DNA from: an uncultured Candidatus Saccharibacteria bacterium | Lineage (GTDB): Bacteria > Patescibacteriota > Minisyncoccia > Phycocordibacterales > UBA918 | DNA: 64,000 bases | NCBI GenBank assembly: GCA_964611205.1 | Contig: CAZSZB010000004.1 | Location: forward strand, 12,121-76,120 | Reading direction: 5' to 3' | Shown: positions 21,054 to 44,585 of the stretch, in pieces | Layout of the letters: the number at the start of each line of letters is the position of its first letter | Numbering within the stretch: position 1 is the first letter of the stretch | Position numbers and translations under genes: made by a program | The notes under the pieces: generated by a model | What the model saw: only the letters and a program-made list of their open reading frames with translations | The model's database searches: none | What the model was told of the DNA's origin: nothing

Positions 21054-23228
21054 ATGGCACGAGCATTTCCACTGGATAGACTACGTAACTTCGGTATCGT
21101 TGCACACGTTGATGCCGGGAAAACAACAACATCAGAACGCATTCTTTTTTATACAGGAATGAGTCACAAAATGGGTGAGACCCACGACGGTACATCAATT
21201 ACTGACTGGATGGACCAAGAACGTGAGCGCGGTATTACTATTACTGCCGCTGCTATTTCTTGTAACTGGGCGAAAACTTTAGAGACTGATCGCACTAATA
21301 AAGACAAGATGTACAGTTTCAACATCATCGACACTCCTGGACACATCGACTTTACTGCCGAGGTAAAACGATCGATGCGCGTGCTCGACGGAGCAGTGGT
21401 TGTATTCGATGGGGCAGCAGGAGTAGAGCCACAGACTGAAACTAACTGGGGTTATGCCGACGAAGCTAGTGTGCCACGAATTTGTTTCGTCAATAAAATG
21501 GATAAATTAGGAGCTGATTTTGATGCTTCTGTAAAATCTATTGAAAATCGTCTTTCTAAAAAAGCTTGTCGTATTCAAATCCCAATGGGCTCAGAAAACA
21601 ATATGCGAGGTGTGATAGATCTGATCACTATGAAGGCCTATACTTTTGGCGGGGAAATGGGAATGGAAGTTAGCGAACAAGAAATTCCTGAAGAATTCAA
21701 AGCTGAGGCAGAAAAACGTCGCGCTGAACTTATCGAACGTGTAGTTGAACATGATGATGCTCTGATGGAAGCCTTTCTAGAAGGGAAGGAACCTTCTTTA
21801 GAGGATTTAAAGAAGACTCTTCGTAAAGCTGTTTTAGCTAACGAGATTTTCCCAGTGATGACTGGTACTGCTCTACAAAATGTTGGAGTGCAACTAATTC
21901 TTGATGCCGTGGTTGACTACCTCCCGTCGCCACTAGACCTGCCTGATACTGTAGGACATGATCCAAAAGACGAAGAAATTACATTAACTCGCAAGGCTTC
22001 TGACGAAGAACCAATGTCTGCTCTAGTTTTCAAACTCCAAGATGACAAGTTTGTTGGTCAATTAGCTTTCTTCCGAGTTTATTCTGGTGTTATTAAAAGT
22101 GGTACATATATCCTTAACGCTTCAACAGGTAACAAAGAGCGAGTAGGACGAATTGTCCGCTTGATGGCTGATAAACGGGAAGAGGTAGAAGAAGTGTATG
22201 CTGGAGAAATTGCTGCTGCCGTAGGTATTAAAGAAGTAAAAACATCACATACACTATGTGATGTCGATAAACCAATTCTACTAGAAACCATCACTTTCCC
22301 AGCTCCGGTGGTAGCAGTTCGGGTAGAACCAAAGACAAAGAACGACCAAGAAAAAATGGGTGTGGCTTTGAAGCGATTGGCTGATGAAGATCCGACATTT
22401 GTGGTCTCGACTGATGATGAAACATTAGAGACTATTATTGCTGGTATGGGTGAGTTACACCTAGACATTCTGATCGACCGTATGAAACGAGAATTTGGTG
22501 TTGAAGCAAATATTGGTCAACCACAGGTTGCTTACCGAGAAACTATTCAACGAGAAGCTGAAGCTGAACACAAATATATCAAACAATCTGGTGGTCGTGG
22601 ACAATATGGTCATGTTAAGATCCGTATTAAACCACTCGAACCCCTAGCTGAAGGGGAGACCGTAGCTAAGAATGTGACTCGCGAAGATCATTTCGAGTTT
22701 GTCAACAGTATTAAAGGCGGTACTATTCCACAAGAATATATTCCAGCAGTGATGAAGGGTTGTAGAGAGGCCATGGCTCGTGGTCAGGTAGCTGGTTATA
22801 AGATGGAAGATGTTTCCGTTGAATTGTTTGACGGTTCTTACCATGATGTGGACTCAAGCGAAATTGCCTTTAAATTGGCTGGTATTAACGCTTTCAAGGA
22901 AGCAGCTAAGAGAGCTAATGCGGTTATTCTTGAGCCGATAATGAAGGTTGAAGTGCGAACTCCAGAAGAATATATGGGAGATATTAACGGAAATATTTCT
23001 TCTAAGCGCGGACAAGTAGAGGCTTCAGAAGAATTGGGTGGAAAAACTATTGTTCACGCCAAGGTGCCTTTGTCTGAAATGTTTGGTTACACAAATACTT
23101 TGCGTTCTATGACACAGGGCCGAGCTTCAATGACAATGGAATTTGATCATTATGAAGTAGTGCCTCCAAACGTAGCCGAGGAGATTAAAAAAGCTCGAGG
23201 AGTTAAATCAGATGTTGAGACAGCTTAA
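21054..23228 (+). CDS. fusA: Elongation factor G
   Basis: The G-domain motif AHVDAGKTTTSE is present in a 724-aa protein. Confidence 0.95.
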   Translation: MARAFPLDRLRNFGIVAHVDAGKTTTSERILFYTGMSHKMGETHDGTSITDWMDQERERGITITAAAISCNWAKTLETDRTNKDKMYSFNIIDTPGHIDFTAEVKRSMRVLDGAVVVFDGAAGVEPQTETNWGYADEASVPRICFVNKMDKLGADFDASVKSIENRLSKKACRIQIPMGSENNMRGVIDLITMKAYTFGGEMGMEVSEQEIPEEFKAEAEKRRAELIERVVEHDDALMEAFLEGKEPSLEDLKKTLRKAVLANEIFPVMTGTALQNVGVQLILDAVVDYLPSPLDLPDTVGHDPKDEEITLTRKASDEEPMSALVFKLQDDKFVGQLAFFRVYSGVIKSGTYILNASTGNKERVGRIVRLMADKREEVEEVYAGEIAAAVGIKEVKTSHTLCDVDKPILLETITFPAPVVAVRVEPKTKNDQEKMGVALKRLADEDPTFVVSTDDETLETIIAGMGELHLDILIDRMKREFGVEANIGQPQVAYRETIQREAEAEHKYIKQSGGRGQYGHVKIRIKPLEPLAEGETVAKNVTREDHFEFVNSIKGGTIPQEYIPAVMKGCREAMARGQVAGYKMEDVSVELFDGSYHDVDSSEIAFKLAGINAFKEAAKRANAVILEPIMKVEVRTPEEYMGDINGNISSKRGQVEASEELGGKTIVHAKVPLSEMFGYTNTLRSMTQGRASMTMEFDHYEVVPPNVAEEIKKARGVKSDVETA

Positions 23229-28145: not shown

Positions 28146-28345
28146 ATAATGAAAACCCTCCCCCACACCATCATAAAAATCTCCATCATCCTCGGCATCG
28201 TCACGGTCGCTTTCGCCGTCAACTACATCCAAGCTGCCTGGTCTGCCCCACAGAACAACCCACCAGATGGCAACACCCCAGCTCCCATCAACGCTGGTAC
28301 TGAAGCCTAAGTGAAAGAAGGAGCTTTGTCGGTGGATGGGTTAAC
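28146..28345 (+). repeat. Copy 4 of the 5' module
   Basis: Near-identical DNA apart from the C-to-T change that creates the stop. Confidence 0.8.
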
Positions 28346-28841
28346 TTCGTATGCCAACACTAATATATTCATTGGTGCTAATAATCAAAGTCTCGAAATT
28401 AAACCTGGCTCAAAAGGCTCTGTTAGTGCCGCCGGCTACACTACTCTTGATGTGGTTGGTGCCAACGGCACTCTCTACACTCCTAAAGACTTAGAAGTAG
28501 GAGGTCAGGTACGAGCTGGTCAGTATTGTGATGAGAATGGGGAGAATTGTTTGACTGGCGGGGGGCCATCAGGCGGAACTCCAATCACTTATTCTGTAAC
28601 TGTGAGGTATCCACAGGATAAGAGTGGTAGCAGTGCAACAAAGTTGATCACTTCAAATGCTGGTTTTTTCATGTGTGCCTTGACCACACACCAAACTATA
28701 TATTATGAGACTTTTGGTTCAGATAACTTGGATGAGTATTGCAAAATCACCTATAATGGAAGTTCTGATGATTGGACATTGACTGGTAGAATCGTTGATA
28801 CAGTGCAGGCTCGGATAACATGCACTATGACCTGTCGTTAA
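28149..28841 (+). pseudogene. Paralog D of the island family, interrupted by an in-frame TAA at codon 54
   Basis: At 28308-28310 the codon GAA GCC TAA replaces GAA GCC CAA (EAQ) found in the other copies. The downstream frame continues with VKEGALSVDGL. Confidence 0.6.
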
Positions 28842-28896: not shown

Positions 28897-29566
28897 GTGA
28901 TAATGAAAACCCTCCCCCACACCATCATAAAAATCTCCATCATCCTCGGCATCGTCACGGTCGCTTTCGCCGTCAACTACATCCAAGCTGCCTGGTCTGC
29001 CCCACAGAACAACCCACCAGATGGCAACACCCCAGCTCCCATCAACGCTGGTACTGAAGCCCAAGTGAAAGAAGGAGCTTTGTCGGTGGATGGGTTAACT
29101 TCGTATGCCAATAACAACATTTTTGTTGGTGCAGGAGGTCAACAATTCTCTATCAAGCCAGGGTTTAAGGGTGGGGTGGAGACTGGAGGGTATGTGACTT
29201 TAGACCCGTCAGGGACAAGTAGTTCTCTTTATGTTCCTGATAATTTGGGGGTGGGAGGGCAGGTGAGAGCCGGTCAGTATTGTAATGAAGATGGTATCGT
29301 GTATTGATGGAGGGAGTGTTATAGGTACACTGTCGACTCATAATTTTACCATAAGGGGTTACGATGGTGAAAGTCAGTCTATGAATGTGGGGGAATATAG
29401 CTTCTGTGCTTTAACACGTGTTGAAATTTTTGATGATGGTGGGGCACGAGGGTGGCCAACGGAAGGATGTTATTTAAGTCGCTCCGGAAATAACTGGACA
29501 ATGACGGCAACTAATAATTACGGAGGATCGCCGGATATTACGAGATGTGAAGCCACTTGTTTTTAA
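28897..29566 (+). pseudogene. Paralog E of the island family, split by a frameshift near 29293-29295
   Basis: The N-terminal module plus ..GGQVRAGQYCNEDG then shifts frame; the next frame reads ..VSCIDGGS.., homologous to NCLTGGG of paralog D. Confidence 0.55.
28900..29100 (+). repeat. Copy 5 of the 5' module
   Basis: Near-identical DNA. Confidence 0.8.
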
Positions 29567-29646
29567 AGCAACTAATTTTTCAAATACACAAAAATTAGAA
29601 AATATACATATATTTAGGATTTTGTTCTATGAGATAAATTGATAGC

Positions 29647-29675
29647 TTGCAAAATGTGTGCATATTCTGTAATAT
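29647..29675 (+). promoter_or_regulatory. Candidate sigma70 promoter for tuf
   Basis: -35 TTGCAA, a 17-bp spacer, -10 TAATAT, about 180 nt upstream of the tuf ATG. Confidence 0.45.
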
Positions 29676-29858
29676 TGCGGACACTGCATACGGCCTTCGG
29701 TCGTGGTAGGGCAATCATAATCGCTCTTTCACACTTTTGAGTGTGCTTTGGTAACGTACTGTTCTCGTGCCGTTTCCATAACACATTCAGCCGAGGTTTT
29801 TATATTTAAAACCCAGCCGTGTGCGGTTGCATTTATAAAAATTAATCTAACTAATTTT

Positions 29859-31049
29859 ATGTCAGATTTTGATCGTTCAAAGCCGCACGTAAACGTTGGA
29901 ACTATTGGTCACGTTGACCATGGTAAAACAACTCTTACGGCTGCGATTCTAACTACCCTAAAAGCTCACGAGAGCGAGGGTTACAGTGCTAACGTTAAAG
30001 ACGTTGGTGATATTGATAAAGCCCCAGAAGAAAAGGCTCGTGGTATTACTATTTCTCTTTCTCACTCTGAGTACGAGACTCCTAATCGTCACTACGCGCA
30101 CATTGATGCTCCTGGTCACGCCGACTACATTAAGAACATGATTACTGGTGCCGCCCAGATGGATGGTGCTGTACTTGTAGTAGCTGCTACTGATGGTGCT
30201 ATGCCACAAACTCGTGAGCACGTACTATTGGCCAAGCAAGTTGGTGTACCTAGTATCATTGTTTTCCTAAACAAATGTGATCTAGTTGATGATGAAGAGA
30301 TGCTCATGCTAGTAGAAGAAGAGCTTCGTGAACTTCTAACTGCTAACAAATTTGACGGAGAAAATGCTCCGATCATACATGGTTCTGCTCTAAAGGCTTT
30401 AGAGGGAGATGCCGAATACCAAGCTAAAATTATTGAATTGGCTAATGCGATGGATTCATTCTTCCCAGAACCAGTTCGTGAGCTTGATAAACCTTTCCTA
30501 ATGCCAGTAGAAGACATCTTCTCTATTGAAGGACGCGGTACAGTAGTAACTGGTCGTGTAGAGCGAGGTAAGGTTAAGGTAGGAGAAGAAATCGAAATTG
30601 TTGGAATCAAGAATACTGTTGTCACAACTGTGACTGGTGTTGAGATGTTTAATAAACAACTTGATGCAGCTCAAGCTGGAGACAATGCTGGTATTTTGCT
30701 ACGAGGTACTAAAAAAGAAGATGTACACCGTGGTCAGGTTCTAGCTGCTAAAGGTTCTGTTACTCCACATACTGAATTTGAAGCCGAAGTGTACATACTT
30801 TCAAAAGATGAAGGTGGTCGTCACACTCCTTTCTTCTCAGGTTATAAGCCTCAGTTCTATATTCGTACAACTGACGTAACAGGAGACGTTACGCTAGCTG
30901 AAGGAACAGAAATGGTTATGCCAGGAGACACTGCAACTTTCAAAGTAAAGCTAGTATCTCCAGTAGCTCTAGAGGAACAACAAAGTTTTGCTATTCGTGA
31001 AGGAGGTAAGACAGTGGGAGCTGGTGTTGTAACCAAAATAGTCGCTTAA
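29859..31049 (+). CDS. tuf: Elongation factor Tu
   Basis: The protein starts [25 protein letters not shown]. The ORF-track start at 29748 is an in-frame upstream extension. Confidence 0.95.
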
Positions 31050-31118
31050 GCGATTTAAACCACCTTGTCTCCCTCAAATTAACAGAGAGGAAAGATGAGG
31101 TAGTAAATTGAAAATATT

Positions 31119-31475
31119 ATGGCAACACAATCTACATCAAAAAAAGATAGCAAAGAGGCAGCTGGAGAAATCCAGAAACTACGTATCCGTGTTCGTGCTT
31201 ACGAACATAAGATATTGGACGCTTCAGTGAAACAAATCATTGATACGGCTATGCGTTTCGACGCTAAAGTGGTTGGTCCGATTCCATTACCGACAGAAAT
31301 AAAAAAATATACAGTTAACCGCTCATCATTCGTGTACAAGGATGCGCGAGAACAGTTCGAGATGCGTATGCATAAACGCGTTATCGACATCCATAGTCCA
31401 AGTGCAAAGGTGATTGAGGCATTAACTAATTTATCTCTGCCGTCTGGAGTGAACATCGATGTAAAAATGATCTAG
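31119..31475 (+). CDS. rpsJ: Ribosomal protein S10
   Basis: 118-aa S10 with an N-terminal extension. Confidence 0.9.
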   Translation: MATQSTSKKDSKEAAGEIQKLRIRVRAYEHKILDASVKQIIDTAMRFDAKVVGPIPLPTEIKKYTVNRSSFVYKDAREQFEMRMHKRVIDIHSPSAKVIEALTNLSLPSGVNIDVKMI

Positions 31476-31591
31476 AGAAGTTAACTGATATAAATTATAT
31501 TTGTTAAATAGATTATATTCTTTATTCTAATTTGGATATTAAGATAGATAATCTAGCTTTGAAAATCATTTCTTTTCTCATTGCCATATAA

Positions 31592-31627
31592 CAAAAGACC
31601 GGCGCCTTTGGCGCCGGTCTTTTGTTA
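31592..31627. terminator. Strong intrinsic terminator directly after rpsJ
   Basis: Stem GACCGGCGCC, loop ttt, stem GGCGCCGGTC, followed by TTTTGTT. Confidence 0.75.
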
Positions 31628-31697
31628 TAAACATAACCCTATAAAACCTTTCTTATTTCAAGTTATGCTAAATAAATAGACTAAAATAAAGCAAATC

Positions 31698-31910
31698 ATG
31701 AATTTTGAAAATCAACACAATCTCACCCCTGAAGATGAAGCCTTAATTAAAAAGGTTATAGAAGAAGCAGTAGAAGAAATTCCTGAAATTACTCCAGTAA
31801 AAAGATCACGACCGGCTGAATTAGGAGAAGATGACAACCAACATCCATTAAAATCAGAAGATGAGATAGAAAGGTCTTTAAATCCTCATGGTTTCGAGGA
31901 ATTAAAATAA
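31698..31910 (+). CDS. Small acidic hypothetical protein
   Basis: 70-aa ORF with no recognizable domain. Confidence 0.35.
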   Translation: MNFENQHNLTPEDEALIKKVIEEAVEEIPEITPVKRSRPAELGEDDNQHPLKSEDEIERSLNPHGFEELK

Positions 31911-31956
31911 ACTACAAAAATATTTTCAACACACAATACTCCAGTTAACTGGAGTA

Positions 31957-32274
31957 TTATTGTTCAGGTTTACGCTCGCGGCTCTTAAACACAAAGTCTT
32001 TTAAGGACTTTGTGTTTTTAAGTAATTGATAAATAGCTTCTGGTTGTTCAGTGTGGACCGATATTTTTTGGATACTTTGACCAGATATAAGGAGTTCAAA
32101 ACCGGCGTTTGTATAAACACAGGTCAAAAATCTCTTTCCAGATCCTTTTTTGCTGTTTACTTTAATTTCACCAGGAGCAATCATTTTTATGCCTGGTATT
32201 TTTTTTAATTCACGAACGACGGTCTGAGCAGTTTCAGTTAGAGTAGTATGTTCACGTCCTCGAGCTTTAGTCAT
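31957..32274 (-). CDS. Hypothetical protein
   Basis: 105 aa starting at MTKARG. The first 11 codons of the ORF-track version overlap the terminator T-run and are rejected. Confidence 0.45.
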   Translation of the reverse strand: MTKARGREHTTLTETAQTVVRELKKIPGIKMIAPGEIKVNSKKGSGKRFLTCVYTNAGFELLISGQSIQKISVHTEQPEAIYQLLKNTKSLKDFVFKSRERKPEQ

Positions 32275-32289
32275 TATGAGGAGAATAGC

Positions 32290-32320
32290 ATAAAAAGAAA
32301 AAGGCACCTAAGTGGTGCCG
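32290..32320 (-). terminator. Intrinsic terminator on the minus strand
   Basis: Stem GGCACC, loop acttag, stem GTGCC, then TTTTTCTTTTT when read on the minus strand. Confidence 0.5.
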
Positions 32321-32331
32321 AGTCCCCCTCC

Positions 32332-32535
32332 TTAGAAGCTGTCATAATCCCCCGGAGGGTATTTTCCCGTCCAGCCTTGAGTAGCCAAGGGAGGGCGGTT
32401 CGATCCGAACTGTTCCGTCTTGGCTAACCATTGAGCGAATTCGTGCCCATCAGTTTGCAGCCGTGATTCGGAGTGTTCGTTTGGACCAGGTGAAGTTCCG
32501 TCACCTTGTGGTCCATCATTGTGCATAATCAACAT
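32332..32535 (-). CDS. Small hypothetical protein in a GC-rich segment
   Basis: 67 aa starting MLIMHNDGPQGDG, with an AGGAGG ribosome-binding site 8 nt upstream. Local GC is about 55%. Confidence 0.45.
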   Translation of the reverse strand: MLIMHNDGPQGDGTSPGPNEHSESRLQTDGHEFAQWLAKTEQFGSNRPPLATQGWTGKYPPGDYDSF

Positions 32536-32593
32536 ATTTTTCACCTCCTCATTATTTGTACCACACAATAATTAACTATTTTATATTTTTGAA

Positions 32594-32640
32594 CACAAAA
32601 ACCGGTACCCCCTCATTTGGGAGTACCGGTTAGTTTTTTC
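32594..32640. terminator. Bidirectional intrinsic terminator
   Basis: AAACCGGTAC, loop cccctcatttgggA, stem GTACCGGTT, then AGTTTTTT. Confidence 0.6.
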
Positions 32641-32670
32641 TGCACGCTTCACTACCTCGTGTGACTGGCC

Positions 32671-32883
32671 TTAACCTTTGGTCAGTGCATCCAGGGTTTC
32701 TTTAGCGAGGTTGTCAAGAGATCCCTTGACCAACTTCTGAGTCAGCCGGATTTTGCACTGCTCAGTGGCACAGTACAGTTTGTAGCCCTTGGCAGAAACA
32801 TACAGAGCGCTGCCCAGGCCGTCAACTACGACTTCTCGACCGCACCCGCAAGCACACGGCACCGTGACATTTGAATGTTCCAT
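32671..32883 (-). CDS. Small zinc-ribbon protein (CxC...CxxC), GC-rich
   Basis: 70 aa starting MEHSNVTVPCACGCG, with a second Cys pair YCATEQC, and an AAGGAGA ribosome-binding site 7 nt upstream. Confidence 0.5.
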   Translation of the reverse strand: MEHSNVTVPCACGCGREVVVDGLGSALYVSAKGYKLYCATEQCKIRLTQKLVKGSLDNLAKETLDALTKG

Positions 32884-33107
32884 GATCGTCTCCTTGTTGA
32901 GTATCGTCAGTACTCTGACAAAAAAATGTAATTTTGGCAAGTTTTTGTTGACTTTGACTTTTATTTCCCGTATTATAGCCGCGTTCTAACCTCGTTATAT
33001 ATGTCCCCTGGTAGGGAGATATAAAACAACAAACCGTTACAGAAGAAGTCACAGCATTCAGCCGAATGTTGTCTTATTATTTATTCAATTAAGTTTCACT
33101 GATCTAT

Positions 33108-33440
33108 ATGTCACGATCTCTATATAAGGGACCGTACGTGGAGGAAAGAATTCTTAAGAAAATCGAAGGTAAAAAACCCGAGCAAGTAAAAGCTCCAATC
33201 AATATTTGGGCTCGCGCTTCGGTTATCTCGCCAGAGATGGTGGGGTTCACCTTCGGGGTTCATAATGGTAAAGAGCATATTGCGGTTCTCGTAACTGAAG
33301 ATATGGTCGGTCACCGTTTTGGTGAGTTTTCGCCAACTAAGAAATTCTACCGCCATGGAGGTAAGATGCAGAAAGAACTTGATCAGAAGAAGAAGGAAGC
33401 AGAAATTGCAGCTGCTAAAGCTGCTAAAGCTGCCTCTTAA
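33108..33440 (+). CDS. rpsS: Ribosomal protein S19 with a Lys/Ala-rich C-terminal extension
   Basis: The protein starts MSRSLYKGPYVE. Confidence 0.9.
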   Translation: MSRSLYKGPYVEERILKKIEGKKPEQVKAPINIWARASVISPEMVGFTFGVHNGKEHIAVLVTEDMVGHRFGEFSPTKKFYRHGGKMQKELDQKKKEAEIAAAKAAKAAS

Positions 33441-33455
33441 ACTTAACGCTTAGAT

Positions 33456-33773
33456 ATGAAAGCAGTTTTAAAAAACTACCGACAATCACCGCGTAAAGTT
33501 CGTCTTATCGCTGGTCTTGTTCGAGGGAAGAAAGTTAAAGACGCGTTAGCAACACTACAATTTGTTGAGAAGCGTGCAGCGGAACCATTTGCAAAAGTGA
33601 TCCGCTCAGCAGTTGCCAACGCAACTCAAGCTGGTGCAAATCCAGACAATCTAATTATTAAGAAAGTGGCCGTTGACAAGGGTACTGTGATTAAAAGACA
33701 CATGCCTCGAGCGCGAGGTTCTGCCTCACCGATCAACAAACGCAACAGTCACATTACCGTTGAACTCGGTTAA
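33456..33773 (+). CDS. rplV: Ribosomal protein L22
   Basis: 105-aa L22. Confidence 0.9.
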   Translation: MKAVLKNYRQSPRKVRLIAGLVRGKKVKDALATLQFVEKRAAEPFAKVIRSAVANATQAGANPDNLIIKKVAVDKGTVIKRHMPRARGSASPINKRNSHITVELG

Positions 33774-33790
33774 ATTAAGTAAGGAATTCT

Positions 33791-34504
33791 ATGACACACG
33801 TAGCACATCCATACATACAGCGACTGGGTATCAATCGTGATTGGCGCAGCCGCTGGTTTGCCGTATCGCCTAAGCAGTACCGAGAGTTTATTCGGACTGA
33901 TCATGCGATTCGTAAACTACTAGAAAAAAAGCTCAAAGGCATGTCAATTGATGCTATTGAGATTGAGCGTGATGAAAAAGCACTTCGTATCCTTATAAAA
34001 ACTGCCCGTCCTGGTCTAGTGATTGGACGTAGTGGTGAAGGAGCAACTCAACTTCGCAAAGATGTTGATCTACTTTTACGAAAATTAAAATTATCTGAAA
34101 AACCTGAAATCAAGATTGATGTTGAGGAGATTCGTTCTGTAGAAAGTAGTGCCGCAATCGTAGCTCAAATGATAGTTGAAGGACTTGAAAAAAGAATGCA
34201 ATTTCGTCGAGTTTTAAAACAGACAGTCGAAAAAGCAATGGCTAACCGTGACGTAAAAGGTGTTCGTATCATCGTGTCAGGACGACTCGGTGGCGCTGAC
34301 ATGGCTCGTCGCGAGGAGCTAAAAAAAGGTCGAATCCCACTCCAGACTCTCCGTGCAGATATTGATTTTGCTCGTGAGCGAGCCAATCTACCTTACGGTG
34401 TGATTGGTATTAAAGTTTGGATTTATCGAGGTGATGTTTTTGGTGATCGTAATACAGAAAAAAGCGATAACAAGCCAGCTCGTCACAACAGTCGTAATGC
34501 ATAA
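33791..34504 (+). CDS. rpsC: Ribosomal protein S3
   Basis: 237-aa S3 with a KH domain. Confidence 0.95.
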   Translation: MTHVAHPYIQRLGINRDWRSRWFAVSPKQYREFIRTDHAIRKLLEKKLKGMSIDAIEIERDEKALRILIKTARPGLVIGRSGEGATQLRKDVDLLLRKLKLSEKPEIKIDVEEIRSVESSAAIVAQMIVEGLEKRMQFRRVLKQTVEKAMANRDVKGVRIIVSGRLGGADMARREELKKGRIPLQTLRADIDFARERANLPYGVIGIKVWIYRGDVFGDRNTEKSDNKPARHNSRNA

Positions 34505-34514
34505 CTAGAGACTT

Positions 34515-34949
34515 ATGTTATTTCCTAAAAAGGTAAAACACCGCAAGTGGCAGGTGATGCGCAGACATCCTGATAAATTCAAACGACCAGATACACGAGG
34601 GGTAACAGTAGATTTTGGTTCTTACGGATTAAAGGCTACGACCCAATCTCGCGTCAAGTCTAATCAGATTGAAGCAGCACGACGAGTCATTAGTCGTACT
34701 ATGGGAAAATCTGGAAAAATGTGGATTCGTATTTTCCCAGACCGTCCGGCAACTAAGAAAGCTGCCGAAGTACCGATGGGTAAGGGTAAGGGTGATCCAG
34801 AGTACTTTATGTTTGAAGTTTATCCCGGTCGAATATTATTCGAAATTGAAGGTGTTCCTGAAGAGGTGGCTCGTGAAGCGCTTCGCAAGGCGACAGCTAA
34901 GCTGCCTGTAAAGGCCAAGTTTGTTCGTCGTGAGGATACCCGCGTGTAG
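34515..34949 (+). CDS. rplP: Ribosomal protein L16
   Basis: 144 aa. Confidence 0.95.
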   Translation: MLFPKKVKHRKWQVMRRHPDKFKRPDTRGVTVDFGSYGLKATTQSRVKSNQIEAARRVISRTMGKSGKMWIRIFPDRPATKKAAEVPMGKGKGDPEYFMFEVYPGRILFEIEGVPEEVAREALRKATAKLPVKAKFVRREDTRV

Positions 34950-34961
34950 TTAAGTAATTAT

Positions 34962-35174
34962 ATGAGTACATATAAAGACATTCAGAAGAAAGACGATAAA
35001 TCACTAGTAGAACTAGTTAAGGAGAAGCGAGAAGCCATTCGGTCTTTTCGGTTTAGCAATACTGGTAGCGCTACTCGTAATGTACGTCAGGTAAGAGCAG
35101 ATAAGAAAGCTATTGCCCAGGCTTTGACTGAACTTAACGCCCGTCAGAAAGACCTAGCTAACGAAACTAAATAG
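34962..35174 (+). CDS. rpmC: Ribosomal protein L29
   Basis: 70 aa. Confidence 0.85.
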   Translation: MSTYKDIQKKDDKSLVELVKEKREAIRSFRFSNTGSATRNVRQVRADKKAIAQALTELNARQKDLANETK

Positions 35175-35443
35175 TGAATATGGAAGAAAAAAACACTAAA
35201 GACGTTGCAACTACTGGTGGTCGAGTGCTGAAAGGTACTGTGGTAGCTAGTAAAATGCAGGATACTATTACTGTAGCAGTGGAACGTTACACTAAGCATC
35301 CAAAGTACAAAAAGTATATGCGTCGCACCAAAAAATTCTTAGTTCATGATGCTGGTAACACAGCACAAGTAGGGCAAAAGGTCGAGATTAAGGAAACACG
35401 CCCGATGAGTAAACGAAAACGTTTTACTCTCGTTAAAGCATAA
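35174..35443 (+). CDS. rpsQ: Ribosomal protein S17
   Basis: 89 aa. Confidence 0.9.
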   Translation: MNMEEKNTKDVATTGGRVLKGTVVASKMQDTITVAVERYTKHPKYKKYMRRTKKFLVHDAGNTAQVGQKVEIKETRPMSKRKRFTLVKA

Positions 35444-35450
35444 TAATCTT

Positions 35451-35822
35451 ATGATTCAACCACAAACAATCGTGAAGATTACAGACAACTCCGGAGGAAA
35501 AGTAGGTCGTGTTTTCAAGGTCCTTGGTGGATCTAAAAAGCGCTACGCGGAACTCGGAGAGTTGGTAATACTATCAGTACAAATTGCTGAACCACGGAAG
35601 AACGTAAAGAAAAAAGATGTTGTGTGTGGAGTCGTTGTGCGACAGCGTAAACCATACCGACGAAAAGATGGTTCTTATGTAAGTTTTGACGACAACGCTG
35701 TTGTCCTAATTGATAAAGAGAAAAAAGAACCAAAAGCCAACCGTGTGTTTGGTCCTATCCCACGCGAATTATCAGAAGCTGGTTTCCAGAAAATTGTATC
35801 ACTTGCTCCAGAAGTAGTTTAG
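35451..35822 (+). CDS. rplN: Ribosomal protein L14
   Basis: 123 aa. Confidence 0.95.
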   Translation: MIQPQTIVKITDNSGGKVGRVFKVLGGSKKRYAELGELVILSVQIAEPRKNVKKKDVVCGVVVRQRKPYRRKDGSYVSFDDNAVVLIDKEKKEPKANRVFGPIPRELSEAGFQKIVSLAPEVV

Positions 35823-35962
35823 TAAGTCTTATGAGTAAAACGAATTAGAACTACTTAACCCAGCCCTACTTTTGTTGCCAATATTCTGTTGATACAAAAA
35901 GTAACAAAAGTAGAGCTGGATAGGATTGTTTCTAAGCTCGTAAACTCGCTAAAAAAAATCAT

Positions 35963-36262
35963 ATGAAAATCAAAAAAGGAGACACTGTGAAAATAATTGC
36001 TGGAAAGGATAAGGGTAAGACTGGTAAAGTAGAAGAAACTTTCGCTAAAATAGAAAAAGTTGTAGTAGAAGGAATCAATATTGCTACTAGACACCAGAAG
36101 AACCGCCAAACTGGATCACAGGGTCAAATAGTTGAAAAATCAATGCCGATACATGTTTCTAATGTGTCTATTATGGAAGGAAAGAAACCAGTTCGGGTTG
36201 GTTATAAGGTCGAAGATGGAAAGAAAGTAAGGGTGGCTAGGCCATCAGGTAAAAATATTTAG
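35963..36262 (+). CDS. rplX: Ribosomal protein L24
   Basis: 99 aa with a KOW motif. Confidence 0.9.
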   Translation: MKIKKGDTVKIIAGKDKGKTGKVEETFAKIEKVVVEGINIATRHQKNRQTGSQGQIVEKSMPIHVSNVSIMEGKKPVRVGYKVEDGKKVRVARPSGKNI

Positions 36263-36303
36263 GAAATTAATAAGTAATAAATTACGATTAAGATTTCTAA
36301 GTA

Positions 36304-36882
36304 TTGTCTACTCAAAAAATTATGACTACAACAATGAAAGAAAAAGTTGCCGGTTCATTTGAAGCCCTAAAAGGCGCCTTCAATTACAAAAATGTAAACC
36401 AGGCACCAAAGATTGAGAAAGTTATTGTTTCTACTGGTACTGGCAAGATTGAAGATAAGAATAGGCTCGAGCTTATTCAAGATCGTCTAGCTAGAATTAC
36501 TGGTCAGAAATGTTCACCACGGCCAGCTCGTCTTTCCATTGCTTCATTTAAATTGCGAGAAGGAGATATCGTTGGTTACCAAGTAACTTTACGAGGATCT
36601 CAGATGTATAACTTTTTAGATAAGTTAATTCACATCGCTTTACCGCAGACTCGAGATTTTCGAGGTTTGAAAGTTTCTGCAATTGATGAGATGGGTAATA
36701 TAACTCTTGGTATTAAAGAAAGTTCTATTTTTCCAGAAACTCATGATGAAGATCTAAAGGACGTATTTGGCTTAGCTGTTACTATCGTAACTACAGCCAG
36801 AAGTAGAGAAGAGGCTGAAGCTCTACTCCGATTCATTGGCTTGCCGTTGCAGAAGCCAGAAGTAGTTGAAGCTAAAGAATAA
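36304..36882 (+). CDS. rplE: Ribosomal protein L5
   Basis: 192 aa. Confidence 0.9.
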   Translation: MSTQKIMTTTMKEKVAGSFEALKGAFNYKNVNQAPKIEKVIVSTGTGKIEDKNRLELIQDRLARITGQKCSPRPARLSIASFKLREGDIVGYQVTLRGSQMYNFLDKLIHIALPQTRDFRGLKVSAIDEMGNITLGIKESSIFPETHDEDLKDVFGLAVTIVTTARSREEAEALLRFIGLPLQKPEVVEAKE

Positions 36883-36939
36883 ATAACCAAAACGTAACGG
36901 TTGAGGTAATCTATATATCGTAAATCTGCGATAAAATAC

Positions 36940-36973
36940 CAAAAGGGCGGCACCCAAGTGCCGCCCTTTTGGT
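36940..36973. terminator. Intrinsic terminator after rplE
   Basis: AAAA, stem GGGCGGCAC, loop ccaa, stem GTGCCGCCC, then TTTT. Confidence 0.65.
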
Positions 36974-37259
36974 TGTCTAGCTAATAATTCTTAGTCTTCG
37001 TATTTAGATAAATTTATTTCATAGGATTCTGGTTTTACCCTTGTATTTTCCATATTTTCACGTATAGTAGTGACCAATATAAACTCAATAGTTAGGTGTT
37101 TGGGTTTGTAGAAGACAGGCGCTACCTGGTGCTTAGTCGGATTTATAAGGTAGAAAGGTCGTGGCATCTACACGAAACCGCTACAAAATTTAATATATGA
37201 TACCGAAACGAGTGTCGTTTTAGTCACTCTGCTCGTTGTTTCATTTAATTTTTAAAAAA

Positions 37260-37445
37260 ATGGCACGAAAGTCAATTATCGCTCGGTCCCTACGAGTACC
37301 AAAATTCAAATCTCGTGTTGTACGTCGTTGTAATCGGTGTGGTCGCGCGCATGGCTACTTACGAGACTTCGATCTATGTCGTATCTGTTTCCGTGAAGCG
37401 GCGCATGAAGGACATATTCCAGGTGTAAAAAAATCATCATGGTAG
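37260..37445 (+). CDS. rpsZ: Ribosomal protein S14, short zinc-binding (type Z) form
   Basis: 61 aa starting [10 protein letters not shown], with CNRCGR...CRIC cysteines. Confidence 0.85.
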
Positions 37446-37834
37446 GAGATACAGTAGGAGATTTCATCATCCAGCTAAAAAATGCTGGTATGGTAGGGAA
37501 GAAAGAAGTACGTTTACCGTACTCAAAACTAAAGCATTCAATAGCGGATGTTTTAAAGAAGGAAGGTTATATTGCCGAAGTGGCAACTGAAGGTGAATCT
37601 GCTAAGAAACAATTAGCTGTTAGCCTTAAATACAGTGAAGCTGGCACTCATAAAATTGTAGATGTGAAGCGAGTCAGTAAACCAGGTCGAAGAACGTATA
37701 CCAAAGCGTCAGAAATTTATCCAGTAAAGTTTGGTAAAGGTCGTGTAATTTTCTCTACCCCTGCCGGTATATTAACTGGCGAGGAAGCTCGTAAACAAAA
37801 CGTAGGTGGAGAACAGTTATTCATGATTTGGTAA
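37439..37834 (+). CDS. rpsH: Ribosomal protein S8
   Basis: 131 aa. Confidence 0.95.
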
Positions 37835-37838
37835 TAAT

Positions 37839-38372
37839 ATGAGTCGATTAGGAAAACAACCAATTGAGTTACAGTCTGGGGTAGAGATGTCCCTTTCTGG
37901 TGACGTAGTTACTGTTAAGGGTCCCAAAGGCTCATTATCTTTAACTGTTAAAGATAATATCAAGATAAATATTGATGGTTCTACCGTCACTCTTGAGCCA
38001 GTTAATGATGCTAAGGAAACCTTAGCTATGTGGGGTACTTACGCTTCTATTTTACGAAACTTTATCATTGGAGTAACTGAAGGTTACGAGAAAAAGTTAG
38101 AGATTGAAGGAGTTGGTTACCGAGCTGAAGCAGCTGGTCAGAAACTGACTATTAACGTTGGATATTCACACCCAGTCATTATGGAAGTACCAGAGGGTAT
38201 CACCTGCATAGTTGAAAAAAACGTTGTTACAATCTCCGGGATTGATAAACACGCTGTTGGACAATTTGCAGCCAATGTTCGTAAGGTGAAAGAACCAGAA
38301 CCATACAAAGGTAAAGGTATACGTTACCAAGGTGAGTATATTATTCGTAAGCAAGGTAAGAAAGCAGTATAG
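37839..38372 (+). CDS. rplF: Ribosomal protein L6
   Basis: 177 aa. Confidence 0.95.
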   Translation: MSRLGKQPIELQSGVEMSLSGDVVTVKGPKGSLSLTVKDNIKINIDGSTVTLEPVNDAKETLAMWGTYASILRNFIIGVTEGYEKKLEIEGVGYRAEAAGQKLTINVGYSHPVIMEVPEGITCIVEKNVVTISGIDKHAVGQFAANVRKVKEPEPYKGKGIRYQGEYIIRKQGKKAV

Positions 38373-38405
38373 AGTTAATATTGCTTTATCTTAAGTAGAA
38401 ATACT

Positions 38406-38756
38406 ATGAAAAAAACACAAGCTAAAACAGATACTCGCATACGAAGACACAATCGTATCCGGGCAAAGATATTTGGCACCGCTACTAAGCCTCGCCTTGC
38501 TGTCTTTAAGAGTAATACAGCTTTGTATGCGCAGCTGATAAATGATGATACAAATCAAACTATCGCTGCTGCAGATACCCGAAAGGCTGTCGGCGCTAAC
38601 CTAACAGAAAAGTCTGCAGCCGTAGGTAAAACTATCGCTGAAGCCGGAAAGAAAGCAGGGATAGAAACCATTGTTTTCGACCGTGGAGGATTTAAGTATC
38701 AGGGTATAATTGCTGCTTTAGCAGACGGAGCCCGTGAAGCTGGACTTAAATTCTAG
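38406..38756 (+). CDS. rplR: Ribosomal protein L18
   Basis: 116 aa. Confidence 0.9.
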   Translation: MKKTQAKTDTRIRRHNRIRAKIFGTATKPRLAVFKSNTALYAQLINDDTNQTIAAADTRKAVGANLTEKSAAVGKTIAEAGKKAGIETIVFDRGGFKYQGIIAALADGAREAGLKF

Positions 38757-38782
38757 TGTAATTAAAAATAAATCTAATTAAA

Positions 38783-39445
38783 ATGTCAGAACAAAAAAAG
38801 CAGGAAGCTACAATGGAAGTCGAGACTGCGAACAACGCAGTTCCTACTCCAGACACTGATACAAAGACTGTATCGACTGATGCACCCGCTGCTGACGAGT
38901 CTAAGCAGAGTGCGAGACCACAGCGAGGACGCGGCGGTAATCGAAGTGGGGGTGATAATCAACGCAATCCACGTCGTCCTCGACGAGGTGGTCGCGGAGG
39001 AGAGCGAGTTCGCCAAGAATTTGATCAAAAAATCGTTAGTATCCGTCGCGTAACTCGTGTTATGGCAGGAGGACGACGTTTCTCCTTCTCAGTTTCGATG
39101 GTTATTGGTGATAAGAAGGGAAGAGTGGGAGTTGGTATTGGAAAAGCTGGAGATACTCAATTAGCTATTGAAAAATCAGTTCGTAATGCTAAGAAAAATA
39201 TGATCACTGTTCCTCTTAACAAAGATGGACACATACCACACGATGTACACACAAAAATTTCTTCTAGTGAAGTTATGATAATACCGGCTCCAGGCCGCGG
39301 TTTGGTTGCTGGTTCTTCTGTCCGTACAGTTTTGGAATTGGCGGGAGTAAAAGATGTTACAGCAAAGATATTTTCTCGCAGTAAGAATAAACTTAATAAC
39401 GCTCGTGCTACTGTCGAAGCACTTAAGCAATTAAAGAACGAATAA
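38783..39445 (+). CDS. rpsE: Ribosomal protein S5 with a ~75-aa Arg/Gly-rich N-terminal extension
   Basis: The S5 core begins near IVSIRRVTRVMAGGRRFSF. The preceding tail is low-complexity RGG/RRPRR. Confidence 0.9.
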   Translation: MSEQKKQEATMEVETANNAVPTPDTDTKTVSTDAPAADESKQSARPQRGRGGNRSGGDNQRNPRRPRRGGRGGERVRQEFDQKIVSIRRVTRVMAGGRRFSFSVSMVIGDKKGRVGVGIGKAGDTQLAIEKSVRNAKKNMITVPLNKDGHIPHDVHTKISSSEVMIIPAPGRGLVAGSSVRTVLELAGVKDVTAKIFSRSKNKLNNARATVEALKQLKNE

Positions 39446-39447
39446 GT

Positions 39448-39897
39448 ATGCAGTTACACGAATTAAAACCAACCAAAGTTCGCAAAGTGGCCAAGCGTGT
39501 TGGTCGTGGTGGTAAACGCGGAAAAACTTCTGGCCGTGGTCATAAAGGTCAGAAAGCTCGTGCTGGTAACAGTACTCGTCCTGAAATGCGAGACTTCATT
39601 AAGAAATTACCTAAGTTGCGAGGACATGGTATCAACCGAGCTAAAACTGTAAACGCAGATAAGTTATCTATAACGGTAGTTAATCTAAGTCGTTTAGAAG
39701 CCATGTTAGAAAACAATTCACCCGTAAATCCTAAGTCTTTAGTGACTGCAGGCGTAGTTGCTTCAGTTAGAAAAAAAGCTCCTGTAGTTAAGATTTTGGG
39801 AAATGGTGAAGTTACCAAAAAATTCATAGTTACTAATTGTCAGGTCTCTGCGACAGCTAAAGAAAAGATTGAAAAGGCTGGAGGAAGCGTTGCTTAG
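39448..39897 (+). CDS. rplO: Ribosomal protein L15
   Basis: The protein starts MQLHELKP and starts 3 nt after the rpsE stop. Confidence 0.9.
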   Translation: MQLHELKPTKVRKVAKRVGRGGKRGKTSGRGHKGQKARAGNSTRPEMRDFIKKLPKLRGHGINRAKTVNADKLSITVVNLSRLEAMLENNSPVNPKSLVTAGVVASVRKKAPVVKILGNGEVTKKFIVTNCQVSATAKEKIEKAGGSVA

Positions 39898-39915
39898 TGT
39901 TAAAATAAAATAACT

Positions 39916-41190
39916 ATGCAAAAATTAATCCACAAACTGAAGATAATGGTAACCGACAAAGCGATTCGTAATCGGATTCTCTTTGTCTTGGGAGCGCTTG
40001 TAATTTTCCGAGCTTTAGCTACGATTCCAATTCCTGGTGTTGACCAAATAGTCCTCAATCAGTTTTTTGCTAACAACCAATTTTTAGGCTTGTTAAACAT
40101 TTTCTCTGGTGGTGGCCTATCAAACCTGTCCATTATGATGCTTGGAGTGGGTCCTTACATTACTAGCTCCATTATTATGCAGCTATTGACTGTAATGTCA
40201 CCGAAAATTAAAAGTCTCTACTCCGAAGAAGGAGAGGCTGGACGGGCTAAATTTCAGCAATATAGTCGCTTACTAACTCTTCCGTTAGCTATTCTACAAG
40301 CTTTCGGTTTCTTGACTCTATTACAAAGTCAGGGAGTGTTGGCTGGATTATCTACTTTTGATTTCGCAATCAACATTGTTTTGGTAGTAGCAGGATCATT
40401 ACTACTGATGTGGATTGGTGAATTAGTAACCGAGTTTGGTATTGGAAACGGTGTTTCCATCATCATCTTTGCTGGTATCGTAGCCGGTATTCCACAAACA
40501 GTTAGCCAATTATCTTACGCTTTTGCAGACCCTTCACAATTACCACTTTATATTGGATTCGTGTTGGTGGCTCTAGCAGTGACTTACGCGGTAGTCTTTA
40601 TGACTGAAGCTGAGAGGCCTGTACCGATTACTCACGCTAAACAAAGTCGAGGTACTAGTACTTATGGTGGTAGTCAATCTTACCTACCTTTGCGACTCAA
40701 TCAAGCTGGAGTGATTCCTATCATCTTCGCACTATCAATCCTACTGTTCCCTCAGATGATACTGAATATTCTCTCCGCCTTTGATTTTTCATGGGTAGCA
40801 GGAGCAACAGCTATAGTGACTGGTTTCTTAAATAATCAGTTTTATTATGGTATTGCGTACTTTATCTTGGTATTCCTTTTCACTTACTTCTATACGGCTG
40901 TAACATTCGATCCAGAGCAAGTGGCCAAGAATCTACAACGCAATGGTGCCTTTATTCCGGGTATACGTCCTGGTGGTCACACGTCTGAATATTTAGGCAA
41001 TATCATCACTAGACTGACACTAGTTGGTGCGACATTCCTCGGTATAGTAGCGGTCTTCCCAGTGGCTATGCAGATGGTAACCGGAATTGCTTCACTGGCG
41101 ATTGGTGGTACAGCATTACTGATTGTTGTGAGTGTGGTTTTGGACTTGATTCGTCGTGTTGATGCTCAGGTCAGTTTGCGAGAATACTAA
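39916..41190 (+). CDS. secY: Preprotein translocase SecY
   Basis: 424 aa with 10 transmembrane helices. Confidence 0.95.
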   Translation: MQKLIHKLKIMVTDKAIRNRILFVLGALVIFRALATIPIPGVDQIVLNQFFANNQFLGLLNIFSGGGLSNLSIMMLGVGPYITSSIIMQLLTVMSPKIKSLYSEEGEAGRAKFQQYSRLLTLPLAILQAFGFLTLLQSQGVLAGLSTFDFAINIVLVVAGSLLLMWIGELVTEFGIGNGVSIIIFAGIVAGIPQTVSQLSYAFADPSQLPLYIGFVLVALAVTYAVVFMTEAERPVPITHAKQSRGTSTYGGSQSYLPLRLNQAGVIPIIFALSILLFPQMILNILSAFDFSWVAGATAIVTGFLNNQFYYGIAYFILVFLFTYFYTAVTFDPEQVAKNLQRNGAFIPGIRPGGHTSEYLGNIITRLTLVGATFLGIVAVFPVAMQMVTGIASLAIGGTALLIVVSVVLDLIRRVDAQVSLREY

Positions 41191-41211
41191 TTTAGTCTTT
41201 CTAGACTATTA

Positions 41212-41250
41212 GAAAAAGACCACTAGCCTTTGGCTAGTGGTCTTTTTCTG
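41212..41250 (+). terminator. Strong intrinsic terminator after secY
   Basis: Stem AGACCACTAGCC, loop ttt, stem GGCTAGTGGTCT, followed by five Ts. Confidence 0.75.
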
Positions 41251-41333
41251 TTTAGTTAAAAGTGAAAATCAAAACCCGAAGGTTTTGATTACAAAAGGGG
41301 CGACTGGGCCAGAATATTTGCGGCCCAGTCATC

Positions 41334-41474
41334 TTAGCGTTCGGATTCAACCATTGTTTCGGATTGGCTAGCGTCGGCCGTGACAGTCTCAAAAATAAGA
41401 CTGAAGGTAGCAATGGTTAATCCGATGATGGCAATCATCTGCCAGACTTGGAGTTTTCTTGCGTAAAAAAACAT
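41334..41474 (-). CDS. Candidate 46-aa single-helix membrane peptide, below the 60-aa ORF-track cutoff
   Basis: The peptide MFFYARKLQVWQMIAIIGLTIATFSLIFETVTADASQSETMVESER is followed on the minus strand by a hairpin (GACTGGGCC/GGCCCAGTC) and a T-run. Confidence 0.3.
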   Translation of the reverse strand: MFFYARKLQVWQMIAIIGLTIATFSLIFETVTADASQSETMVESER

Positions 41475-41546
41475 TTGTCCCTCTTGGTTTATTGGTCTCT
41501 GTAGGTAATAGAAACATTTAGGGCGCTGGAAGTCAAATAGTAGATT

Positions 41547-42125: not shown

Positions 42126-42176
42126 ACGATACCATCATCTTGTAATTTTGTGTAACTAAAGTAAACTGCTCATATT

Positions 42177-43543: not shown

Positions 43544-43554
43544 TTTTATTTAGA

Positions 43555-43592
43555 CAAAAATCATAAAATGCGTTGCATTTTATGATTTTTGT
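43555..43592 (+). terminator. Intrinsic terminator after map
   Basis: 15-bp stem AAAATCATAAAATGC, loop gtt, stem GCATTTTATGATTTT. Confidence 0.7.
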
Positions 43593-43633
43593 CGCTATAC
43601 TTCGGCGGTTAGATAACTAAAAATTTATTAAAT

Positions 43634-44239: not shown

Positions 44240-44275
44240 ACAGCTCAACACAAAGTATATTTTTTAAAAAATTAC

Positions 44276-44312
44276 AAAAGACCTAGCAATTATCCGCTAG
44301 GTTTTTTGTTTT
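44276..44312 (+). terminator. Intrinsic terminator after ndk
   Basis: Stem ACCTAGC, loop, stem GCTAGGT, then TTTTTTGTTTTT. Confidence 0.65.
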
Positions 44313-44364
44313 TAAAGTTACAAAATAGAAAATTTGAAGGAGAGAGTAACATTTTTTAAGTTTG

Positions 44365-44373
44365 TGATATAAT
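44365..44373 (+). promoter_or_regulatory. Extended -10 promoter element (TGaTATAAT) for the downstream small RNA
   Basis: TG at -15/-14 with a perfect TATAAT. No good -35 is present. Confidence 0.4.
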
Positions 44374-44380
44374 CGATATT

Positions 44381-44566: not shown

Positions 44567-44585
44567 ATCTACCGGTAAAGTTGAC

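Follow-up and report, generated by a model that had tools for sequence, protein, structure and literature searches.

An uncultured Paceibacteria genome with a probably divided str-S10-spc cluster and a probably relocated rplC-rplB unit

In a stretch of 64,000 nucleotides (nt) from contig CAZSZB010000004.1 of an uncultured member of the Paceibacteria (the window, to which all coordinates below refer unless another locus is named), the gene for ribosomal protein S10, rpsJ, is followed not by rplC-rplD-rplW-rplB (encoding L3, L4, L23 and L2), but by a 1.6-kb spacer with four small genes, behind which the ribosomal protein genes resume at rpsS (S19). We consider it likely that the str-S10-spc supercluster has been split in this genome into autonomous units and that one of them, the rplC-rplB unit, has been relocated. 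Few gene orders in Bacteria are as strongly conserved as that of S10-spc, and practical work takes it for granted. What has become of the four genes, and is their displacement peculiar to one organism? The break in the window is a new case of a known type of event, the rearrangement of ribosomal protein clusters, and stands at the extreme of a habit of its lineage; that habit, together with a set of conserved and unannotated leaders, is of more interest than the break itself.

The rpsJ-rpsS interval and the displaced block

Genes were identified by Pfam searches, from the list of open reading frames (ORFs) and from the Pfam labels on identical contigs. The interval and its flanks are made up as follows.

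29859-31049, plus strand: tuf (EF-Tu, 396 aa); Pfam domains GTP_EFTU, D2 and D3, with the same gene calls on identical contigs
31119-31475, plus strand: rpsJ (S10); Pfam Ribosomal_S10, E=1e-32
31587-31629, bidirectional: hairpin of the intrinsic-terminator type, with A-tract, GC-rich perfect 20-bp stem and U-tract; folding free energy (ΔG) -34.7 kcal/mol, z=-9.5
31698-31910, plus strand: orf70, acidic 70-aa protein (ORF list)
31935-31958: small hairpin between the convergent orf70 and DUF2103 genes; ΔG -13.3 kcal/mol, z=-5.7
31957-32274, minus strand: small basic protein of the DUF2103 family, 105 aa; Pfam PF09876, 28.9 bits against a gathering threshold of 22.4, E=1.1e-6
32332-32535, minus strand: orf67, GC-rich, 67 aa (78 aa from an upstream start, 32332-32568); from ORFs and sequence
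32600-32631, minus strand: terminator hairpin after the Cys-rich gene, 13-bp stem then UUUUUGU; ΔG -24.1 kcal/mol
32671-32883, minus strand: Cys-rich protein (CxCxC...C..C), 70 aa (89 aa from an upstream start, 32671-32940); from ORFs
33108-33440, plus strand: rpsS (S19); Pfam Ribosomal_S19, E=7e-31
[quoted passage not shown]
35823-35962, between rplN and rplX: 140-nt repeat element (repeat comparison)
36938-36973, bidirectional: terminator-type hairpin after rplE, 16-bp stem; ΔG -32.6 kcal/mol, z=-8.2
37260-41190, plus strand: rpsN (Zn-type S14)-rpsH-rplF-rplR-rpsE-rplO-secY; Pfam S14 and Pfam labels on identical contigs

A first-pass annotation of this DNA, made from the letters alone, had described a strong terminator at 31592-31627, then a 70-aa acidic ORF and three minus-strand genes, and then rpsS. 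The hairpin is present and perfect over 20 bp, and ORFs and Pfam return the same order of genes; the second terminator, which it had placed at 36940-36973 in the gap between L5 and S14, is found at 36938-36973. Its description of rpsJ as standing alone with its own terminator holds for the terminator, but not for the solitude: rpsJ begins 69 nt after tuf, with no strong hairpin to be read between the two, and therefore most likely closes a tuf-rpsJ unit, which the hairpin at 31587-31629 would terminate. This hairpin combines the GC-rich stem and the U-run of an intrinsic terminator, with A-tract and U-tract forming the outer pairs; a simple terminator scanner misses it because the U-run falls within the stem.

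The four genes missing between S10 and S19 are indeed missing, and from the window as a whole. With the L3, L4, L23 and L2 proteins of L052, a relative that has the compact canonical order, tblastn found nothing in the 64 kb (best E=0.095); in about 60 related loci the same queries recovered the whole set of four. The other large ORFs of the window, when scanned with Pfam, gave no L3, L4, L23 or L2. The window thus lacks a contiguous rplC-rplD-rplW-rplB between rpsJ and rpsS, and rpsJ is not the first gene of an operon with promoter and leader, the conserved promoter and leader lying upstream of tuf.

Where do the four genes reside? The L2 protein of the related locus L029 was too conserved to serve as a probe (7879 matches, the top 120 all at 79-93% identity), and P0020 and P0103, two candidates chosen for their source and number of contigs, belong to other organisms, in which the order is S10...L3-L2...S19. 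The L4 of the closest relative, being more variable, led to P0139, a match of 78% identity on 13-14 contigs from Logan and ENA. Eight of the ten samples shown for these contigs also hold the S10 or S19 of the window (SRR31940685, SRR31940688, SRR31940697, SRR30309628, SRR30309626, SRR29792794, SRR29792792 and ERZ926210). On the same-population contigs that carry the L3-L2 block (L110-L119) the order is ileS, recO, a gene for a CLIPPER-domain protein, glyS, cysS, tatD, vanY on the minus strand, 242 nt of non-coding DNA, and rplC-rplD-rplW-rplB; none has S10 upstream or S19 downstream.

The GC content of the block contigs is 40.4% and that of the window 40.2%. The proteins of the block rank the relatives as L098 > L023 > L020, and the ribosomal proteins of the window have the same three nearest relatives at comparable identities. 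Block and window also share a lineage-specific intergenic element, which is about 71% identical between the rplN-rplX spacer of the window (140 nt) and the rplC-rplD spacer of the block (179 nt), spacers that measure only 10-50 nt in relatives. In it a hairpin, TTATGAG-YRAAR-CGAATTA, precedes a long-range inverted repeat, ACCCAGCCCYACTTT...AAAGTRGRGCTGG. Because of the shared samples, the GC content, the common nearest relatives and this element, we assign the block to the genome of the window, and the prediction that it lies elsewhere in the genome is borne out to the extent that this putative linkage holds. Copies of the element, which resemble miniature inverted-repeat transposable elements or repetitive extragenic palindromic sequences, and related hairpins are located as follows.

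Window 35823-35962: copy in the rplN-rplX spacer
L110:9822-10000: copy in the rplC-rplD spacer
Window 50506-50524, minus strand: related hairpin
Window 50294-50312, minus strand: related hairpin

Promoters and 5' leaders of the units

Each unit examined opens with a conserved predicted sigma-70-type promoter (TTGaCa or TTGCAA, 17 nt, TAnTAT), behind which lies a 5' leader that is conserved too. We infer from their sequences that the predicted promoters and terminators are in use.

L110:8957-9197: promoter and structured leader upstream of rplC; found in 28 other loci besides L110, e.g. L098:8004-8288 and L029:4468-4729
29647-29858, plus strand: tuf promoter and leader of about 180 nt; TTGCAA 29647-29652, 17-nt spacer, TAATAT 29670-29675
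32948-33107, plus strand: rpsS promoter and leader of about 125 nt; TTGACT 32948-32953, 17-nt spacer, TATTAT 32971-32976; 10/12 matches in the promoter scan
37025-37259, plus strand: promoter-like site (about 37041-37068) and leader of rpsN; upstream of S14 also in L098 and L018 (nhmmer; alignment A8)

The 242 nt that precede the relocated rplC recur with conserved DNA sequence immediately before rplC in about 30 loci (nhmmer E 1e-17 to 1e-5). A promoter (TTGC.., 17 nt, GTATACT) leads into AGCUUUUAAAGACCUAYGU, a variable hairpin P2, the invariant ACCAAUGGGCACAAA and a long GC-rich hairpin P3/P4 flanked by AAA and UUU(U). There usually follows GGUC(U)...AAAGC, which can pair with the 5' end of the leader and so close the domain, as it does in the minimum-free-energy fold (z=-4.6). 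The conserved RNA measures about 130-170 nt, and the simple scanner marks a terminator-like site on its 3' side in L110 and L098.

In a MAFFT alignment (A2), 90.7% of the cells are paired, compared with 32-51% when the partners are slid against each other, and nine pairs change on both sides. An alignment of 29 sequences fitted to the model (A7) gives 91.6% against 29-49%, with double-sided changes in 14 pairs and 76 cells, a level reached by 0 of 500 shuffles. We therefore regard the rplC leader as a structured RNA supported by covariation. The covariance model places it in 29 loci, each time right in front of rplC and only in the clade of the window, and has no match in the window. Rfam searches of L110 and L114 (E<=0.1) and of window positions 29400-37400 yielded no match, only sub-threshold ones on hairpins. 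In an alternative pairing, 98% paired, an upstream GGGCACAA would engage the P4 loop and 3' strand (UUGUGCUC); this arrangement would have the geometry of an antiterminator or a pseudoknot.

What might such a leader sense? The S10 leader of Escherichia coli is an L4-responsive transcription attenuator and translational operator confined to Gammaproteobacteria (PMC3616713). Like it, the rplC element precedes an operon that encodes L4 and forms a structured 5' leader, in which a terminator-like hairpin comes after conserved upstream hairpins (P2, P3 and P4 covary). Unlike it, the candidate stands upstream of rplC and not of rpsJ, is similar to it neither in sequence nor by Rfam, and is limited to one clade of Paceibacteria. 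By this analogy the leader is a tentative candidate for an attenuator responsive to a ribosomal protein, either L4 or L3, a reading to which we give somewhat less than even chances. When compared with E. coli 23S rRNA, the leader shows a short co-linear resemblance in helix 96 only, UGUUCGG...CCAAUGGCAC, which was noticed post hoc and is a weak hint towards L3; none of the loci compared contains a 23S rRNA gene of its own. The fuller proposal, which is doubtful and to which we lean less, is of a new autoregulatory rplC attenuator that senses a protein of its own operon (L4 or L3) as one of four lineage-specific leaders replacing the classical S10 and spc feedback in a clade of Paceibacteria, so that the sub-operons would become portable modules. 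We know of no regulatory RNA of ribosomal proteins in Patescibacteria, and a literature search within one library of papers found no description of leaders of this kind, or of breaks internal to the S10 cluster, in the Candidate Phyla Radiation or Patescibacteria.

The promoter and leader of tuf recur upstream of tuf in at least 20 relatives (nhmmer), and an alignment of at least 13 relatives (A6) shows invariant -35 and -10 hexamers and blocks in the leader; Rfam gives no match, and the region looks like another unannotated structured 5' untranslated region. The region upstream of rpsS was found in 7-8 related loci (nhmmer) and has conserved -35 and -10 elements and a leader hairpin (alignment A4), which covaries around the consensus ATATTCGCCCC-TGG-CAGGGCAATAT. 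At the rpsN promoter and leader, the overlapping minus-strand ORF of 58 aa (orf58, 36991-37167) is probably not a gene. The four conserved leaders, of tuf, rplC, rpsS and rpsN, are testable candidates for new regulatory RNAs of ribosomal proteins.

Gene order in relatives and the origin of the break

The nearest GTDB genomes are metagenome-assembled genomes of uncultured Paceibacteria or Parcubacteria, labelled Nomurabacteria, Kaiserbacteria or Paceibacteria, whose S10 is 71-93% identical to that of the window. Among relatives in which at least half of the translation proteins compared (up to 18) are represented, the closest are L098 (an ENA contig), L020 and L027 (82-83%); L023 reaches 86% over the seven translation proteins that it covers. 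Synteny was surveyed in 80 GTDB loci. In the 25 leader-bearing genomes of the clade that have S10 and L3 on the locus, the two are separated by 351-5830 nt (median 1811) and L2 and S19 by at least 432 nt (median 1845); none of the 25 has the compact canonical order, and among more distant Paceibacteria the S10-L3 gap is shorter than 150 nt in only 8 of 40. Of 27 relatives scanned, nearly all have a strong hairpin of A-tract, GC-stem and U-tract in the 250 nt that follow rpsJ (best ΔG -17 to -37 kcal/mol), and those of L021 and L104 look homologous to the hairpin of the window. The fragmentation that the first-pass annotation had called unusual is thus real as to the breaks, but it is not peculiar to this genome: both gaps are widened clade-wide.

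The L3-L2 block has left its place in other genomes, too. L029 has the order fusA-x-x-L3-L4-L23-L2-x-tuf-S10, with the block between fusA and tuf; we rejected it as a case of shared ancestry, and because L029 is not the nearest relative its order is an independent event. In L063, an unrelated Parcubacteria genome (PCWC01000078), the place of L3-L2 between S10 and S19 (L063:1984-7362) is taken by genes for a C5 DNA methylase, the restriction enzyme R.HinP1I and a helix-turn-helix protein. The block has accordingly been lost from this interval independently in L029 and L063. L036, L039 and L051 have S10 with neither L3 nor S19 in the flanking sequence, which extends over 10 kb on the downstream side. 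From these gene orders, the break in the window appears as the end point, or extreme, of a clade-wide loosening.

The spacer itself bears on how the break arose. One of its genes encodes the DUF2103 protein, whose match covers positions 7-83 of the 98 in the Pfam profile. Many relatives have a homologue of it in antisense orientation, on the minus strand, directly upstream of rpsS. There are 452 homologues at 60-77% identity, none of them functionally named, and most of those listed carry the PF09876 label; an NCBI/JGI contig of 101,931 bp encodes a protein identical to that of the window. Across the clade the protein is about as conserved as ribosomal proteins are. Its AlphaFold2 model is an alpha/beta structure with a mean confidence (pLDDT) of 80, for which the PDB offered no fold match at E<0.001 (best TM score 0.40), and a sequence search of the PDB returned nothing significant. 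A link of DUF2103 to translation is a guess on our part.

Searches of Pfam, NCBIfam and PHROG found no family for orf70; L032 has a weak homologue (E=0.001) in the same position, with L2 on one side and DUF2103 on the other. The gene orf67 has its own Shine-Dalgarno sequence, a terminator-like hairpin at 32303-32319 and a GC content of about 55% in a genome of 40%, with no Pfam, NCBIfam, PHROG or phage match. The Cys-rich gene (GC 50-53%, likewise with its own Shine-Dalgarno sequence) is a near-orphan, with only 11 representative-level relatives among 1.84 billion proteins; some of these are long proteins that carry it as a repeated module. A partial homologue occupies the same spacer in L098, and tblastn found no phage match. 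For the small ORFs of the spacer together, NCBIfam and phage tblastn gave nothing and PHROGs one sub-threshold match only. Since DUF2103, the weak orf70 homologue of L032 and the Cys-rich fragment of L098 all occupy the L2-S19 gap of relatives, the 1.6-kb spacer is the ancestral L2-S19 spacer, which now adjoins the rpsJ terminator.

Might the true order be canonical, S10-L3-L4-L23-L2-S19, with contigs wrongly joined at the rpsJ terminator or in the spacer? The strong palindromic hairpins of the region can mislead assemblers, and repeats do interrupt assembly of this organism in other places: the ENA contig ends in the pilin-like paralogues upstream of tuf. Yet an identical S10 occurs on 13 contigs and an identical S19 on 17, which stem from no fewer than 12 separate assemblies of ENA and Logan. 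The S10-to-S19 span is intact and identical in content in five contigs from five samples (ERZ27247346, SRR31940688, SRR31940697, SRR31940685 and SRR8449813), which represent different runs and two assemblers (megahit-style ENA, and Logan); seven further contigs span part of the interval. All twelve agree in the four small genes, with amino-acid identities of 98-100%. L3 is never next to this S10, nor L2 next to this S19, on the 13 and 17 contigs, and no S10 or S19 adjoins the block on the 14 L4 contigs. The misassembly against which the first-pass annotation had cautioned is effectively refuted, and we give it next to no credence.

It is also very improbable that the L3-L2 contigs stem from a co-occurring close relative, the window organism's own genes being unsampled or missing from the assemblies. 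P0020 and P0103, the relatives rejected above, come from entirely different samples, whereas eight of ten are shared here; GC content, nearest relatives and the intergenic element all agree; and the contigs are themselves non-canonical, with vanY upstream in place of S10, so that a second organism would need an independent break of its own. What speaks for this alternative is that the linkage is indirect, that many Paceibacteria co-occur in such samples, and that the L4 contigs are also found in SRR29792795 and SRR31940686, outside the S10 and S19 lists shown. A third possibility is that the four small genes are a mobile element or genomic island that was recently inserted and replaced L3-L2 by illegitimate recombination. 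The high GC content of orf67 and the Cys-rich gene (50-55% versus 40%), their near-orphan status and the terminator of each would fit such an origin, as would the restriction-modification system that fills the same interval in L063. In many relatives that have kept L3-L2, however, DUF2103 lies directly upstream of rpsS, the homologues in L032 and L098 mark the spacer as ancestral, and 31476-33107 contains no integrase, transposase, repeat or phage similarity; a recent insertion is very improbable.

We favour, with good confidence, division into units followed by relocation. The str-S10-spc supercluster of the lineage would no longer be one co-transcribed array, but would have been divided into modules of promoter, leader, genes and terminator, of which tuf-rpsJ and rpsS-rplE end in strong hairpins of A-tract, GC-stem and U-tract. 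Such modularity may relax selection for adjacency. The rplC-rplB module could move without loss of expression because it has a promoter and a structured leader of its own, and it would now lie elsewhere in the genome, beside tatD and a divergent vanY. The ancestral L2-S19 spacer, with orf70, DUF2103 and the two small GC-rich genes, would have been left directly behind the rpsJ terminator.

Several points weigh against this explanation. Promoters and terminators are consensus and conservation calls only, and that the block contigs and the window belong to one chromosome is something we infer from sequence agreement. All 14 contigs break 102 to about 360 nt after rplB, in hairpin-rich and strain-variable DNA, so that neither the right-hand insertion junction nor the distance to the window was reached. 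The spacer of the window holds no deletion scar and no remnant of the leader, a search of it for remnants of L3 or L2 found none, and the mechanism of the move cannot be reconstructed. The hairpin repeats downstream of rplB, considered as substrates for recombination, are absent from the S10-S19 spacer, their matches lying only near the gene for transfer-messenger RNA (tmRNA) and in the rplN-rplX spacer. As regards the rplC leader, its alignments are drawn from related genomes, for which shuffles overstate significance; A7 was fitted to the model, though A2, made by MAFFT only, gives the same picture; and the alternative pairing covaries at a single position, a swap from C-G to G-C in four sequences.

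How does the arrangement compare with known ones? Archaea, Asgard among them, invariably have uS10 apart from uL3, in a cluster S12-S7-(fusA)-EF1a-S10, and in many Archaea uL3-uL4-uL23-uL2 form a separate small cluster (PMC10833476). The genome of the window is alike in that S10 stands immediately downstream of the EF-Tu homologue and apart from L3, in that L3-L4-L23-L2, by the putative linkage, form a cluster apart from S19-L22-S3 onward, and in that the block from S19 to L15 stays together. It differs in its bacterial-type proteins and in its predicted sigma-70-type promoters and intrinsic terminators. Because L3-L2 have stayed between S10 and S19 in L098, L023 and L020, the nearest relatives, the state is derived and the likeness due to convergence rather than to shared ancestry. 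In the str operon of cyanobacteria and plastids, rps10 lies downstream of tufA, and L3-L4-L23-L2 are contiguous with S19 onward. There, too, a tuf-rpsJ unit is distinct from the operon that starts with rplC; in the genome of the window, by contrast, nothing of L3-L4-L23-L2 is left at the locus. Gammaproteobacteria and Bacilli have small insertions between str and S10, followed in some lineages by full disconnection, which has been interpreted as relaxed selection for synteny (Brandis 2021, PMC8046335). This two-step pattern fits the clade of the window. The breaks described there, however, fall between classical operons, whereas those in the window lie inside S10 (S10|L3 and L2|S19) and inside spc (L5|S14).

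A large clade of Paceibacteria has thus opened the cluster at S10|L3, L2|S19 and L5|S14, and several members have moved L3-L2 away altogether. Together they offer a natural series, from insertion through the acquisition of an autonomous promoter, leader and terminator to relocation, by which a supposedly frozen operon can dissolve. There is a practical side as well. Concatenated ribosomal protein phylogenies of uncultured lineages often need markers from one scaffold, and the curation of bins anchors on this cluster. In genomes such as the present one L2, L3 and L4 fall on a contig separate from the other markers and may be missed or mis-binned.

Neighbouring genes and repeats

The remainder of the str genes lies upstream in the window and was identified by Pfam.

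18532-19008, plus strand: rpsL
19162-19635, plus strand: rpsG
Between rpsG and fusA, minus strand: TSP3-repeat gene
21054-23228, plus strand: fusA

Between fusA and tuf lie about 6.5 kb with hypothetical genes for surface or pilin-like proteins. A tandem pair of paralogues from one pilin-like or surface protein family, at 28149-28841 and 28897-29566, has the motifs ...AAWSAPQNNPP... and YCDENGENC in common. In copy 1 an in-frame TAA stands at 28308-28310, the place of a Gln codon in copy 2, and copy 2 has an apparent frameshift near 29285-29307. The 60-kb ENA contig stops within this repeat upstream of tuf, and members of the same family are dispersed among the ribosomal protein genes of L029.

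Behind secY, positions 41191-46400 carry a minus-strand gene resembling those for cytidylate kinases, then adk, map, ndk, an unannotated ORF and a gene for an RNase J-like beta-CASP protein. A scan of ORFs downstream of map did not turn up the usual set infA-rpmJ-rpsM-rpsK-rpsD-rpoA-rplQ; the alpha operon thus appears to be detached as well.

The DNA downstream of rplB on the block contigs (L110:11966-12317 and L114:4475-4833) contains GC-rich hairpins whose loops differ between strains, and part of it resembles window positions 50485-50553 (76% over 70 nt). Nearby, on the minus strand, is the tmRNA gene (50663-51061, within 50270-51061), downstream of which are two extra copies of its 3' end: one ending in ...CAACTCCCCCCATCTCCAC at about 50466-50484 and a degenerate one at about 50270-50290. 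Such extra 3' ends are the signature of past integrations at the tmRNA gene. The minus strand at 55926-55999 encodes a tRNA-Ile with the anticodon TAT (UAU); AUA codons are usually read in Bacteria by a lysidine-modified CAU tRNA, and a UAU tRNA-Ile is uncommon.

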